Assembly (NCBI GenBank): GCA_963779755.1
Contig: CAVZZO010000003.1
Span: 928,001 to 992,000 of the forward strand
DNA: 64,000 bases
DNA from: an uncultured Gemmatimonadales bacterium
GTDB lineage: Bacteria; Gemmatimonadota; Gemmatimonadetes; Gemmatimonadales; GWC2-71-9
Direction: 5' to 3'
Below are positions 5,107-56,716 of the stretch, piece after piece. The translations under genes were made by a program, and so were the position numbers. The notes beneath the pieces are model-generated. The model did no database searches. It was not told where the DNA came from and saw only the letters and a list, made by a program, of their open reading frames with translations. Numbering within the stretch: position 1 is the stretch's first letter; every line of letters starts with the position of its first letter.

Positions 5107-5188
5107 AGGACTGAGGACTGAGGACTGAGGACTGAGGACTGAGGACTGAGGATTGAGGACTGAGCGAAGATACCCAGTCCCCGGTCCT
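5107..5188. repeat. (AGGACTG)x8 heptamer array with short inverted arm
   Basis: 8 units at 5107-5162 (one aggattg); cagtccccggtcct at 5175-5188; between convergent genes. Confidence 0.9.
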
Positions 5189-23700: not shown

Positions 23701-23820
23701 CGGGGACAAGGGACACGGGACACGGGACACGGGACACGGGACAAGATCCCTGATTCCTGATTCCTGATCCCTGATCCCTGATCCCTTGTCCCTTGTCCCT
23801 GATCCCTTGTCCCTTATCTC
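23701..23820. repeat. Inverted heptamer arms (GGGACAC/GGGACAA vs TGATCCC/TTGTCCC)
   Basis: Read directly; mixed unit types kept at 7-bp period. Confidence 0.88.
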
Positions 23821-24517: not shown

Positions 24518-24678
24518 CGGGAACCGGGAAATGGGAAATGGGAAATGGAGCCACGGCTCTGTTCTCGTTTCCCGTTTCCCGTTTCCCGTTTCCCGTTTCC
24601 CGTTTCCCGTTTCCCGTTTCCCGTTTCCCGTTTCCCGTTTCCCGTTTCCCGTTTCCCGTTTCCCGTTTCCCGTTTCCC
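24517..24678. repeat. (GTTTCCC)x16 perfect array with inverted (GGGAAAT) arm
   Basis: 16 units at 24567-24678; left arm 24517-24548; between convergent genes. Confidence 0.95.
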
Positions 24679-40143: not shown

Positions 40144-40216
40144 GGGGGCGTAGCTCAGTTGGGAGAGCGCGTGAATGGCATTCACGAGGTCAGGGGTTCG
40201 ACCCCCCTCGCCTCCA
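40144..40216 (+). tRNA. tRNA-Ala(GGC)
   Basis: Cloverleaf; anticodon loop ATGGCAT; G3:U70 pair; no encoded CCA. Confidence 0.96.
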
Positions 40217-40264
40217 CTGAGGGCGGATGGGTGGTCAGCCGGTCGGGCAGTCGGTGGATAGCAA

Positions 40265-40293
40265 TTGCATGCCTCAGGCGTGCACGCTAGAAT
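40265..40293 (+). promoter_or_regulatory. Internal promoter before tRNA-Gly
   Basis: TTGCAT-17bp-TAGAAT. Confidence 0.6.
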
Positions 40294-40305
40294 CCCGGTG
40301 GCCAC

Positions 40306-40378
40306 GCGGGAATAGCTCAGTTGGTAGAGCACAACCTTGCCAAGGTTGGGGTCGCGGGTTCGAGTCCCGTTTCCCGCT
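40306..40378 (+). tRNA. tRNA-Gly(GCC)
   Basis: GCGGGAA acceptor, loop TTGCCAA, GTTCGAGTCC. Confidence 0.97.
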
Positions 40379-40416
40379 CTCGCAAGACGGCAGGACGGCA
40401 GGATGGCAGGTAACGG

Positions 40417-40490
40417 CGCGGGGTGGAGCAGTCTGGTAGCTCGCCGGGCTCATAACCCGGAGGTCGTGGGTTCAAATCCCACCCCCGCTA
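40417..40490 (+). tRNA. Initiator tRNA-fMet(CAT)
   Basis: C1 mismatch, three G-C pairs in anticodon stem, loop CTCATAA. Confidence 0.95.
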
Positions 40491-40492
40491 TT

Positions 40493-40580
40493 GGCGGTAA
40501 GGGCGGTACCGGCGGTAAGGGCGGTAGGGAACTCGTTGCGCTGCGACGACGTCTCTACCGCCCTTCCCGCCCCTACCGCC
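40493..40580. repeat. Inverted nonamer arms (GGCGGTAAG / CTACCGCCC) in tRNA spacer
   Basis: Four units left, three right, small hairpin core. Confidence 0.82.
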
Positions 40581-40591
40581 GCGCCCCGCTT

Positions 40592-40665
40592 GGGCGGTTA
40601 GCTCAGTTGGTTAGAGCGCCACGTTGACATCGTGGAGGCCACAAGTTCGAGTCTTGTACCGCCCA
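40592..40665 (+). tRNA. tRNA-Val(GAC)
   Basis: Stem CCACG/CGTGG, loop TTGACAT. Confidence 0.96.
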
Positions 40666-40666
40666 T

Positions 40667-40740
40667 GCGCTCTTAGCTCAATTGGATAGAGCATCTGACT
40701 ACGGATCAGAAGGTTGGGGGTTCGAGTCCCTCAGAGCGCG
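40667..40740 (+). tRNA. tRNA-Arg(ACG)
   Basis: Stem TCTGA/TCAGA, loop CTACGGA. Confidence 0.96.
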
Positions 40741-41052
40741 CTTGACGCGGCACTCGTGTAACTGACGCCCCGGGGCCACAGCGGAAGCCACGGCCCCGGG
40801 GGTGCGTGGCTTCCGGACAGCGCGACGGACGGCTACCGGCCGCGCTCATCGGATGACGAACGCAGCCGGCCAGGGGGTTATCCCCCAACCGGGGGCCCCA
40901 CCGCGCTTCGCGTTTTCCTGTCCCGCTGTTTTCCCGAAGCTTCTTATCCCCTCCCCTGAGACCCTGCAGGCCCGCTACGCCGACCCCCGGTTGATTTCCT
41001 CCCTGAGGCACCGCAGTTTCCGCCCCCGTCAACTCACCCCGGGGCGCCCTCC

Positions 41053-41594: not shown

Positions 41595-42341
41595 ATGAAA
41601 CGGCTCGTATTGCTGCGGCACGGCGAGAGCGTCTGGAACCGGGAAAACCGCTTCACCGGCTGGACCGACGTCGGCCTGTCGGAAAAGGGCATCGCCGAGG
41701 CGATCCAGGCCGGCGTGACGCTCCGCGACGCGGGCTACCTCTTTGATGTCGCCTACACCTCGGTCCTGAAGCGCGCCATCAAGACCCTCTGGCTCGCGCT
41801 GGAAGAGATGGACCTCATGTGGATCCCGGTGCGCCGCAGCTGGCGACTCAACGAGCGCCACTACGGGGCGCTCCAGGGCCTCAACAAGGCCGAGACGGCG
41901 GAGCAGCACGGCGAAGCCCAGGTGAAGATCTGGCGCCGGAGCTACGACATCCGCCCGCCGGCTCTCACGCCGGACGACCCGCGCTTCCCGGGCAACGATC
42001 CCCGCTACGCGAAGCTGCGGCCCGGCGAGCTGCCGCTCACCGAATGCCTGAAGGACACGGTGGAGCGCTTCCTCCCCTACTGGCACCAGGAGATCGCCCC
42101 GGCGATCGAACGGGGCGACCGGGTGCTGATCGCCGCCCACGGCAACAGCCTCCGGGCACTGATCAAGTACCTGGACAATATCTCGGATGAGGAGATCGTC
42201 GGGCTCAACGTACCCACCGGCATTCCACTGGTCTACGAGCTGAACGACGATCTGACCCCGATCCGGAGCTACTACCTGGGCGACCAGGAGGCGGTGCAGG
42301 CCGCCCAGCAGGCGGTGGCGGCGCAGGGGAAGAAGGCCTAG
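41595..42341 (+). CDS. gpmA: 2,3-bisphosphoglycerate-dependent phosphoglycerate mutase
   Basis: [30 protein letters not shown]. Confidence 0.97.
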
Positions 42342-42348
42342 CAACGGG

Positions 42349-42377
42349 TGGCAATAGGCTGGTGCGCCGGTTACATT
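42349..42377 (+). promoter_or_regulatory. Sigma70-type promoter reading into the repeat array and tRNA-Pro
   Basis: TGGCAA-17bp-TACATT. Confidence 0.5.
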
Positions 42378-42387
42378 CCGCGCCCGC

Positions 42388-42797
42388 GCAGGACGGCCCT
42401 AAAGGACTTCCTCGCGGCTCTTATTGGAGGCCGCTCGGTCGCAGGACGGCAGGACGGCCCTAAAGGACTTCCTCGCGGCTCTTATTGGAGGCCGCTCGGT
42501 CGCAGGACGGCCCTAAAGGACTTCCTCGCGGCTCTTATTGGAGGCCGCTCGGTCGCAGGACGGCCCTAAAGGACTTCCTCGCGGCTCTTATTGGAGGCCG
42601 CTCGGTCGCAGGACGGCCCTAAAGGACTTCCTCGCGGCTCTTATTGGAGGCCGCTCGGTCGCAGGACGGCCCTAAAGGACTTCCTCGCGGCTCTTATTGG
42701 AGGCCGCTCGGTCGCAGGACGGCAGGACGGCAGGACGGCAGGACGGCAGGACGGCAGGACGGCAGGACGGCAGGACGGCAGGACGGCAGGACGGCAG
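42388..42797. repeat. Six identical 53-bp units (8-bp GCAGGACG + 45-bp hairpin cassette) followed by (GCAGGACG)x10
   Basis: Units start 42388, 42449, 42502, 42555, 42608, 42661; one extra octamer at 42441; octamer run 42714-42797. Confidence 0.97.
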
Positions 42798-42843
42798 CCA
42801 GAAAATACCAGGCTGATGGCTAATAGCCTGCAGCTTCGGTCCA

Positions 42844-42918
42844 CGGGGCGTAGCGCAGTCCGGTCAGCGCGCCTGCTTCGGGAGCAGGAGGTCCCCGGTT
42901 CAAATCCGGGCGCCCCGA
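42844..42918 (+). tRNA. tRNA-Pro(CGG)
   Basis: CGGGGCG acceptor, stem CCTGC/GCAGG, loop TTCGGGA. Confidence 0.96.
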
Positions 42919-42924
42919 TAGGAA

Positions 42925-42967
42925 GACGGGAGCAGGACGGGAGGGCCGTCCTGCTCCCGTCATTTTT
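42925..42967 (+). terminator. Terminator hairpin after tRNA-Pro
   Basis: 16-bp perfect stem gacgggagcaggacgg / ccgtcctgctcccgtc, then attttt. Confidence 0.8.
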
Positions 42968-43523
42968 CCATCCTGTTCGCGCCAGCTTCCTCGCTCTGCC
43001 GTCCTGCTCCCGGCAGCACGATATCCTCCAGAAAGAACGCCGCGAGCTCCGCCCGGCCCTGCAGGCGCGATTTCTGATAGACCGCCACGGCGTGCTGCCG
43101 CACGGTGCGCTCGCTGCGCCCGGTGGCGGCGGCGATCTGCTTGTGGCCGTGCCCCTTGAGCAGCATGAGCGCCACCTCCCGCTCCGCCGGCGTGAGCTGC
43201 CACGCCGTGAACTGGTCGTTCACCGCCCGGCCCAGCCCTTCCAGCGCCCGTTCCGCCCGTTCCCGCCAGGCGTCCCGTTCCGCCTGGCGCTCGGTCAGAC
43301 TGCGCCGCAGCGAAGCGGCCGACCGCTCCGCCCGCCCCCATCCCCGCCACAACCAGGCTGTGGTTGCCAGCCCGGCGGCGATCAGGGCCAGCTCATAGAG
43401 CACATGGATCGAGAGCCAGGAGTCCGGCGCATCCAGGGCCAGGTCCAGCATCCCACCGCCTGCGATGGCCAGCAGCAGCACGGTGAGCGGTACGCGGACC
43501 TGTTTCGGCGTGAGTTCGGTCAT
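42960..43523 (-). CDS. Membrane-anchored LuxR-type HTH regulator
   Basis: Two N-terminal TM helices, coiled coil, LTPAEREVALMLLKG..KQIA...SERTVRQH. Confidence 0.88.
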   Translation of the reverse strand: MTELTPKQVRVPLTVLLLAIAGGGMLDLALDAPDSWLSIHVLYELALIAAGLATTAWLWRGWGRAERSAASLRRSLTERQAERDAWRERAERALEGLGRAVNDQFTAWQLTPAEREVALMLLKGHGHKQIAAATGRSERTVRQHAVAVYQKSRLQGRAELAAFFLEDIVLPGAGRQSEEAGANRMEK

Positions 43524-48602: not shown

Positions 48603-48652
48603 GGGGATCAGGAATCAGGAATCAGGAATCAGGAATCAGGAATCAGGAGTCA
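48603..48652. repeat. (GGAATCA)-type heptamer array, about 7 units
   Basis: gggatcaggaatcaggaatc...aggagtca between convergent genes. Confidence 0.9.
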
Positions 48653-48692
48653 GCGCTTCCTCCGGACCCGGACGACTCCGCTCTTTTCCGCC

Positions 48693-56521: not shown

Positions 56522-56716
56522 GACGTGAGGCGTGAAGACGGGAAACGGGAAACGGGAAACGGGAAGACGGGGAACGGGGAACGGGGAACGGGGAACGGGG
56601 AACGGGGAACGGGGAACGGGGAACGGGGAACGAACCGAGGACGTGCGCAATCTGCGGCTAACAGTCCAGAGGCCAACGACTAGCGACCAGCGAACAGCGA
56701 CTAGCTACTGGCGACC
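56522..56716. repeat. Compound heptamer array: (GCGTGAG), (GGGAAAC), (GGGGAAC), then (CTAGCGA)-type units
   Basis: Four unit families in series between kynA and kynB. Confidence 0.88.

Follow-up and report, generated by a model that had tools for sequence, protein, structure and literature searches.

Between gpmA and a tRNA-Pro gene of an uncultured soil bacterium of the order Gemmatimonadales, a 45-nt cassette is repeated six times, with no difference among the copies, within an array of the octamer CAGGACGG. The question raised by this locus is what the cassette is and whether six insertions, or the multiplication of one, placed it there. The stretch of DNA that was analysed, referred to as the window, is 64,000 nucleotides long and corresponds to C3:928001-992000 of a 4.23-Mb genome (68.5% G+C, four contigs). 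The cassette is called E, the genome under study is G000, its contigs include C1, C3 and C4, and other G numbers denote related genomes. The explanation favoured here, which as a whole we judge to be reasonably probable, is that E is a small hairpin element that has been dispersed by insertion into repeats and then locally amplified at tRNA-Pro.

Copies of E in the genome

The exact 45-mer, CCCTAAAGGACTTCCTCGCGGCTCTTATTGGAGGCCGCTCGGTCG, is present twice more in the genome, at C3:1632770-1632875 on the other strand, starting a few bases after tRNA-Asn. A blastn-short search identified 37 near-full copies at 89-100% identity. A more tolerant census, accepting a left arm with up to 3 substitutions and a right arm within 70 nt, yielded 46 full copies together with 3 that are partial or degenerate; they occupy 31 loci, spread over each of the two large contigs and both strands. 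The copies are 45 to 48 nt in length and represent approximately 25 sequence variants. They fall into two subfamilies according to the stem, GCGGCT...GAGGCCGC or GCGGCCTC...GGAGGGCCGC, with the remaining variation mostly in the loop. All 37 near-full copies have the same flanks, ...GG(A/C)GG before E and CAGGACGG-type units after it, in one orientation and at one phase. In total, 31 octamer blocks contain E and 70 do not. The original prediction had proposed a tiny non-autonomous element that targets simple repeats, and the 46 full copies at 31 loci, always inside simple repeats, agree with this.

Eight loci hold between 2 and 6 copies of E, and each of the seven besides tRNA-Pro has its own variants and spacings. 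Within loci, 21 of 29 pairs of copies are identical, compared with 54 of 961 pairs between loci. In 10000 permutations of 45 of the 46 copies over the loci, the number of identical pairs within loci was at most 12 and so never came to 21; the copy omitted is the one at C1:1315543, to which a truncated copy is fused. Spacers are constant within loci, being 8, 8, 8 and 8 nt at tRNA-Pro after an initial 16, 16, 16 and 16 nt at C1:810392, and 24 and 24 nt at C3:1442642, and the amplified unit is E with one, two or three octamers (53, 63 or 70 bp).

Because the variants are locus-specific and the spacing is regular, the six copies in the window are a tandem expansion of a 53-bp unit, not six insertions. 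The original prediction had put forward repeated site-specific insertion into the tRNA-Pro array, with a single insertion followed by tandem expansion as the alternative. The identity and the spacing of the copies show that the alternative is the right one for this array. One inserted E and one octamer (53 bp) were multiplied to five tandem units beside the first copy, through slipped-strand mispairing or unequal recombination. At C1:1394716-1394825 one copy of each subfamily is present, the two being 16 nt apart, and therefore independent arrivals in one array also occur.

At eight or more loci (for example C1:540540, C1:1315543, C3:581121 and C3:1442642), members of two more families of interspersed repeats, TGTCACCCTGAGCG...GAAGGGGCCGAAGCC and CTGTCATTGCGAG...GAAGCAATC, are found 10 to 40 nt 3' of the blocks of E and octamers, so that the spacers are nested mosaics. 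A long autonomous element bounded by the arms of E was sought and discarded, as the lone left arms are 3'-truncated copies that abut genes. The tRNA-SeC genes at C3:5596 and C4:2520 have identical flanks, 75 nt upstream and 45 nt downstream, and C4, which is 33 kb long, may repeat a portion of C3.

The block between gpmA and tRNA-Pro

The block at 42389-42797 has two components only, the octamer CAGGACGG and the 45-nt cassette, each cassette having ...CAGGACGG on its left and CAGGACGG on its right. The features of the locus are as follows.

41652..42341, + strand: 3' part of gpmA (2,3-bisphosphoglycerate-dependent phosphoglycerate mutase), with stop codon TAG at 42339-42341 (open reading frame list; NCBIfam NF010713, 389 bits, above the cut-off)
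42349..42377, + strand: weak, putative promoter-like sequence, TGGCAA (42349-42354), a 17-nt spacer and TACATT (42372-42377)
42389..42396, + strand: first CAGGACGG octamer, the left flank of E copy 1
42397..42441, + strand: E copy 1, 45 nt, with 5' arm, hairpin GCGGCTC/GAGGCCGC and 3' arm (62.3 bits against the covariance model R1)
42442..42457, + strand: two octamers separating copies 1 and 2 (sequence and Tandem Repeats Finder)
42458..42714, + strand: E copies 2 to 6 (42458-42502, 42511-42555, 42564-42608, 42617-42661 and 42670-42714), each followed by one octamer, forming tandem 53-bp units
42715..42797, + strand: uninterrupted CAGGACGG array of about 10 units (Tandem Repeats Finder: 42714-42797, 10.5 copies, 100% matches)
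42798..42843, + strand: unique 46-nt spacer with a small predicted hairpin, immediately 5' of the tRNA
42844..42918, + strand: tRNA-Pro, anticodon CGG (ARAGORN; Rfam tRNA, 68.2 bits)
42925..42961, + strand: terminator-like hairpin of 16 pairs followed by a T run, with the octamer-like AGCAGGACGG within its stem
40382..40410, + strand: E-free ("empty") GCAGGACG array immediately 3' of tRNA-Gly(GCC) (Tandem Repeats Finder)

Tandem Repeats Finder reports the cassette array as having a period of 53 bp, with 5.2 copies, 100% matches and a score of 550. Most of what had been read from the letters of this block stands. The six copies are identical and at one phase of the octamer array, the extra octamer follows copy 1 with single octamers between the other pairs, and the uninterrupted run of ten octamers amounts to 10.5 exact units. 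The hairpin of the cassette folds as proposed. Alone it is thermodynamically unremarkable (-14.3 kcal/mol, z = -0.98), and its support comes from covariation across genomes. The cassette-free array placed at about 40386-40410 is real and spans 40382-40410, between tRNA-Gly and tRNA-Met, with 3.6 units and 90% matches. An array is also present where an antisense octamer array had been proposed, at 248-282, but its unit is the variant CCTGCCGC (81% matches) and not the identical octamer. The Rfam 15 scan of 42389-42797, with E-values up to 1, found no family overlapping the block.

The proposed promoter is present in sequence, and the end of TACATT is 10 nt from the first GCAGGACG unit (42388) and 11 nt from the CAGGACGG register (42389), but a generic sigma-70 consensus scan of 42200-43100 called 0 sites and thus did not call TGGCAA-17-TACATT. 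The sequence TACATTcc (42372-42379) does resemble a TAnnTT motif followed by a C-rich stretch that was seen by eye 7 to 25 nt 5' of many of the 58 tRNA genes. Since gpmA is co-oriented with tRNA-Pro, a weak promoter-like site is present and no terminator was called in the interval between the two genes, the cassette block is probably transcribed, plausibly as a long tRNA-Pro leader, which would be trimmed by RNase P. In a comparison of gpmA and tRNA-Pro synteny, just 2 of 25 relatives had a close gpmA, with tRNA-Pro adjoining it in neither.

Other repeats are found around the tRNA genes of the window and of the genome. The terminator-like hairpin after tRNA-Pro, in the region 42925-43012, is made of octamer-like sequence (GACGGGAGCAGGACGG / CCGTCCTGCTCCCGTC), and the loose 11-mer repeat 3' of it, CCGTCCTGCTC, is the antisense of the octamer motif. 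The E-free array at 40382-40410 is interleaved with a cluster of five tRNA genes (40144-40741), within which mutually complementary 9-mer arrays at 40493-40526 and 40555-40580 would pair, giving a long hairpin in the interval from tRNA-Met to tRNA-Val. By eye, CAGGACGG-type arrays start 1 to 4 nt after 9 of the 58 tRNA genes of the genome. Exact 7-nt arrays of many units occur throughout the window (for example at 1008-1079, 5107-5164, 23703-23818, 24562-24678, 48607-48653 and 56538-56632), often in adjacent complementary pairs, a general intergenic repeat habit of the lineage.

E in other genomes and its insertion sites

Across all of its forms E is 23 to 90 nt in length and consists of an unpaired 5' arm, CCCTRAAGGACTTCCTC (17 nt), a hairpin, and a 3' arm, TCGGTCG (7 nt). 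The arms are nearly invariant, and the hairpin varies by lineage in both length and sequence. Some forms are 23 nt and have no middle, others are 31-39 nt, others are 56-60 nt with a hairpin, and a few are up to approximately 90 nt.

When one genome per species was searched for the 20-mer CCCTRAAGGACTTCCTCGCG, covering 185,579 species, 41 stretches were found. By inspection approximately 20 have both arms, and every one of those comes from a metagenome-assembled genome labelled Gemmatimonadota, Gemmatimonadales or Gemmatimonadaceae. The others are in coding-looking contexts of other phyla, apart from two Gemmatimonadota copies that are truncated or have a variant right arm. The same 20-mer is present in 54 stretches of metagenome contigs, 26 of them two-armed. 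Carriage by phages was considered and dropped, a single IMG/VR stretch having a 19-mer and no right arm. A covariance model of E, R1, has 49 positions and 7 pairs. It has matches in 25 of 151 genomes of the family, from 16 of 78 genera, with between 1 and at least 37 copies per genome (no more than 37 candidates were scored in each); this tally takes in some genomes flagged as unpublished, on which no claim rests. Genomes other than G000 have from 1 to approximately 19 copies.

In 84 distinct sequences on R1, 96.3% of cells pair; sliding the partners by 1-3 columns lowers this to 28-56%. Both sides have changed in 4 of the 7 pairs, one of which is GC in 32 sequences, CG in 25, AU in 5 and UA in 2. 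This alignment was fitted to R1 and is therefore biased towards the structure, and a pairing count based on MAFFT with 27 sequences gave a result in the same direction. A literature search found no description of such an element in the Gemmatimonadota, and the phylum is not mentioned in the part of a survey of repetitive extragenic palindromic (REP) sequences that was consulted (PMC3733652). That E is a family of small interspersed DNA elements restricted to the Gemmatimonadales, or to the Gemmatimonadota, belongs to the favoured explanation and is no more than fairly probable, this being the degree of belief held in that explanation jointly.

Outside G000, 51 distinct flank contexts were collected. 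The first base after E is C in 47 of them, the third is G in 46, and the base before E is a purine in 47. The junction is thus purine^C(N)G (R^C(N)G). In G000 it falls between two CAGGACGG units, and elsewhere in other G-rich arrays of 8-9-mers or next to the foot of the hairpin repeats (REPs) on either side of Y1 transposase genes. Judged by eye, the host array keeps its phase from one side of E to the other and nothing is duplicated. The unit of the host array differs by genome, with GGCGGACA, CAGACGGG, CAGGCGGG, CGGGAGGG and GGCGGACC being found among others.

Filled and empty forms of similar sites are available. On four contigs E is present as GCCGAG[E]CCG..., adjoining a hairpin of the GGCTTCAGCC type. 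There are five empty counterparts, GCCGAG^CCGCGGCTTNAGCCGCG, of which four are inverted repeats flanking two Y1 transposase genes of G097. This comparison is an anchored display, as MAFFT did not open the 59-nt gap. In G081, E is found inside GGGGAAGGGGGA^CAGGGGGTTAGGG, and only 10 empty copies of this motif are present there, one of them 194 nt from a Y1 gene. The flank contexts and the filled and empty sites agree with the absence of a target duplication that had been noted at the window locus.

One copy is coding. E and octamers are in frame within a 1083-aa DnaE-family (DnaE2-like) gene at C1:19972-23223 (positions 2470-2600 of locus L057), whose best full-length NCBIfam match, below the cut-off, is "error-prone DNA polymerase". 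The insert is about 40 aa (...RIV-GGRQDGPKGLPRGLIRGPLGRQ...-EEHPY...) and is lacking from the orthologues of G015, G007, G012 and G004. At the same codon position, the G002 orthologue has a decayed CAAGACGG/CAGGACGG array with no E, and G002 has no match to R1, yet it has a CAGGACGG array elsewhere. These orthologues, the arrays of G002, and the 70 blocks without E in G000 as against 31 with it indicate that E enters arrays whose existence does not depend on it. Comparison of these sites shows E to be a discrete DNA insertion that lacks target duplication and terminal inverted repeats and occurs nowhere but within other repeats. The region C3:1425916-1448767 is a very large zone of mosaic or tandem repeats, where at least 35 copies of GGAAGGGGGACAGGGGGTT are located approximately 80-210 nt apart.

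Relation to known repeats and means of dispersal

REPs are hairpin repeats of small size that have an unpaired tag, GTAG or CGTC, and are often located 3' of genes, with rare in-frame copies in replication and repair genes including those for error-prone polymerases (PMC3733652). The genes encoding the tyrosine transposases associated with REPs (RAYTs) have a REP on either side, the two being inverted relative to each other (PMC2817692). E resembles REPs and BIMEs (bacterial interspersed mosaic elements) in being small, interspersed and extragenic, in having a hairpin and a conserved unpaired part, in having a species-specific sequence, and in often being downstream of genes. It also has an in-frame copy in an error-prone-type polymerase gene and adjoins, or is located within, REP-type hairpins that flank Y1 genes. 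The stem-loop that defines REPs, a palindrome of 20-40 bp, is present in E on the evidence of covariation, in an element of 23-90 nt (45-48 nt here) whose 23-31-nt forms are hardly stemmed.

Other properties separate E from the REPs. It has no GTAG or CGTC, its ends being CCCTRAAGG... and ...TCGGTCG (CGACCGA... on the other strand), and a RAYT gene between inverted copies of the repeat was not seen for E among the Y1 genes examined. There are 46 full copies of E, where REPs usually number more than 100 per genome. E is conserved in its arms and variable in its palindrome, the reverse of REPs, where the palindrome is the conserved part, and E is present as single oriented units in G-rich 8-mer arrays whereas REPs and BIMEs are found in inverted pairs. 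The REP/HUH-like label of the original prediction is therefore unproven, given the lack of the tag, of any examined Y1 gene flanked by E, and of a replication-strand bias.

Miniature elements derived from IS200/IS605 insertion sequences are described as palindrome-associated transposable elements in the portion of the literature consulted (PMC6006769). E has neither of the two traits of the classical miniature inverted-repeat transposable element (MITE), as terminal inverted repeats and a target-site duplication are both absent and its ends are not complementary. The general traits of the IS200/IS605 family recur in E, which has no inverted ends and no duplication, is inserted beside a short conserved sequence and has a hairpin near its end, and Y1 transposases are present in G000. 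It differs in having one central hairpin only, within 23-60 nt, and no subterminal pair matching an autonomous copy. R1 has no match in the IS200-like loci L054 and L055, there is no TnpB, and there is no strand bias.

The mycobacterial interspersed repetitive units (MIRUs) are units of approximately 50 bp, dispersed over tens of intergenic loci, variable in tandem number, often located inside operons, and carrying small overlapping open reading frames. E is likewise dispersed and tandemly repeated, but the MIRU unit is the tandem repeat itself, whereas here the repeat is a composite of an inserted E and 1-3 units of the host microsatellite. No evidence of small overlapping open reading frames like those of MIRUs was found in E. 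The CAGGACGG arrays and the 7-mers of the window are of the same kind as the long G-rich repeats of 7-9 nt known from elsewhere, such as the heptamers of Xanthomonas and Nostoc and the TAACTGA repeats of Beggiatoaceae (PMC4692102, PMC4679880), and those reports, in the parts available, treat the arrays and make no mention of an element living inside them. E is a new REP/BIME-like element family that lacks defining features of REPs, of classical MITEs and of IS200/IS605 miniatures.

No mobilising gene is present in the window, as the original prediction had observed, and the three Y1 (PF01797) genes of G000 are all outside it. Two are IS200-like (L054 and L055) and one is RAYT-like (L056). A Y1 gene of this genome scores 73.5 bits as the IS200 type and 32 bits against the 80-bit cut-off of the REP-transposase model. 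In the region C1:952990-953604 the RAYT-like gene (C1:953122-953562) is located between two direct copies, approximately 87% alike, of a 47-nt double-hairpin repeat, GGCTGAAGCCGAGTCTCG...CACTGAAGTGAAGCA, of which there are about seven copies in G000. TnpB and the RVT_1 reverse transcriptase were rejected as movers because neither has a match in G000. A search for IS91-type Y2 transposases found no match in G000, and none in any control genome either. The E-dense regions of G081 contain ordinary housekeeping genes and no recombinase.

E is present at about 31 loci and has likely been dispersed as an insertional element. By one candidate route it would be mobilised in trans by an enzyme of the host that has folded single strands as its substrate, a Y1 or RAYT-like transposase being the leading candidate; by another it would be copied between arrays through their shared flanks. 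The lack of a duplication and of inverted ends, the fixed junction, the hairpin, and the coincidence in two lineages of E sites with repeats that flank Y1 genes are points for a Y1/HUH enzyme. Y1 genes were found in 22 of the 25 genomes with E and in 70 of the 126 without it (lists compared by eye, from genomes that are related and so not independent). The Y1 route is possible at best, and spread through flank homology has about the same standing. More fully stated, E could be a single-strand-processed mobile element of 23-60 nt that is cut and pasted in trans by a domesticated Y1 (RAYT-like) enzyme, that homes to structure-extruding DNA, both in G-rich microsatellite arrays and at the feet of REP hairpins, that is inserted without duplication and that is then amplified by array slippage, or else that spreads without an enzyme through microsatellite homology. 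In this full form the proposal is speculative and rather unlikely.

Several observations weigh against the explanation favoured here, in which E is a dispersed hairpin element, or against its Y1 component. Of the three Y1 genes of G000 and the three examined in G097 and G081, none is flanked by E when the surroundings are searched with R1. The nearest copies are 2-6 kb away and other hairpin repeats flank these genes. Many genomes without E have Y1 genes (the same 70 of 126), often several, and the copy numbers of E and Y1 do not track each other. Insertion of the IS200/IS605 type into single strands would be expected to give a replication-strand bias, and the sense strand of E is leading at 14 loci and lagging at 16 (cumulative GC skew; inferred replichores and a small sample). 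Forms of 23 nt and 31 nt are nearly or wholly devoid of a hairpin, and E can therefore do without one. Across genera the conservation of the arms is far above that of the rest of E, which could equally mean a selected host function. A comparison of filled and empty sites within one genus (G097 with G007 and G151) gave no clean orthologous intergenic pairs, the flanking genes being 66-78% identical and the flanks split over contigs. The copy number of six in the window is a count from the assembly; no public sequencing run contained more than 5% of the words sampled from the stretch, and no RNA run was listed for it.

The enzyme-free route, in which recombination, gene conversion or template switching copies E from an occupied array into an empty one, we consider doubtful. 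Within G000, E is found only in CAGGACGG arrays, at constant phase and orientation, 70 empty blocks of the CAGGACGG-type unit are available, and each genome has its own host-repeat unit. That each genome has E strictly in a single type of array fits copying through homologous flanks, as do the lack of duplication, of inverted ends, of replication-strand bias and of a linked transposase. The sequence GGAAGGGGGACAGGGGGTT is present in 54 copies in G000 and none contains E, though the same junction is an E site in G081, and so spread through homologous flanks fits better than a simple sequence target, which also counts against the favoured explanation. Against such spread, several loci have approximately one degenerate left unit (TAGCACGG, TAGGAGG, TAGGGCGG), a length insufficient for ordinary homologous recombination, unless these arrays were once longer. 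The entry of E into repeats as unrelated as G-rich arrays, GCCGAG^CCG hairpin repeats and GGGGGA^CAGGGGG is left unexplained, as are the shared junction letters (C at +1 in 47 of 51, G at +3 in 46 of 51) and the conservation of the arms across genera.

It is also conceivable, but unlikely, that E is a structured RNA or DNA signal selected by the host, a 3'-end, processing or protein-binding motif, with the tRNA-Pro array as a functional leader. The near-invariance of the arms across genera and the pairing of the hairpin kept by compensatory changes would suit this, and copies are located just 3' of tRNA-Asn and tRNA-Ala and 5' of tRNA-Pro. Among 29 loci of G000, the gene 5' of E has the same orientation at 15 and the opposite one at 10, with no call at 4. 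Of the 31 E blocks, 10 begin between -14 and +12 nt from the stop codon of a co-oriented open reading frame, a TAG in seven cases. However, the blocks without E begin at stop codons about equally often (18 of 70), and therefore it is the array, and not E, that accounts for the location after gene ends. The bias in gene-relative orientation is mild in G000, and orientation is mixed in other genomes. The patchy occurrence of E (25 of 151 genomes, 1 to at least 37 copies) and its homogeneity within a genome with differences between genomes, as for amplifying elements, argue against a selected signal, as do the copy translated within the polymerase gene, the lack of an Rfam match, and the lack in the genome of a CsrA for the GGA motifs. 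A selected RNA role for E has little support. Two particular roles were also rejected. The AGGA motifs in the arrays and arm suggested a CsrA sponge, for which the genome has no CsrA gene, and a likeness of the antisense arm to the conserved RNase P RNA region GAGGAAAGUCC was put down to chance (duplex -48.9 with the genome's own RNase P RNA, shuffles -45.8 +/- 3.6).

That the cassette is a minisatellite private to one locus, or that an assembly artefact has inflated its copy number, is very improbable. The perfect identity of six copies and the 10.5 octamers do resemble collapsed or expanded assembly repeats. However, the whole-genome search found the cassette at 30 other loci, and it is present in other genomes and in metagenomes, so that the locus-private reading, which the original prediction had tied to its being found nowhere else, is refuted. 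The seven further multi-copy loci with their own variants and spacings speak against an artefact, and with the genome in 4 contigs the repeats are spanned. The exact number of six is the value given by the assembly.

With E, the Gemmatimonadales gain a defined family of interspersed elements whose boundaries are exact, for which there is a covariance model, and whose filled and empty sites occur naturally. It shows that bacterial microsatellite arrays can serve as landing pads and amplifiers for another element, which bears on intergenic mosaics of the BIME type. The conservation of the arms across genera points to a protein that reads them. In practical terms, blocks of E break short-read assemblies, yield variable-number markers, and can add peptides in frame, as in the error-prone-type polymerase here. 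If true, either spread driven by a Y1 enzyme or spread driven by homology would mean that a repeat can colonise simple-sequence arrays in a manner not described before.

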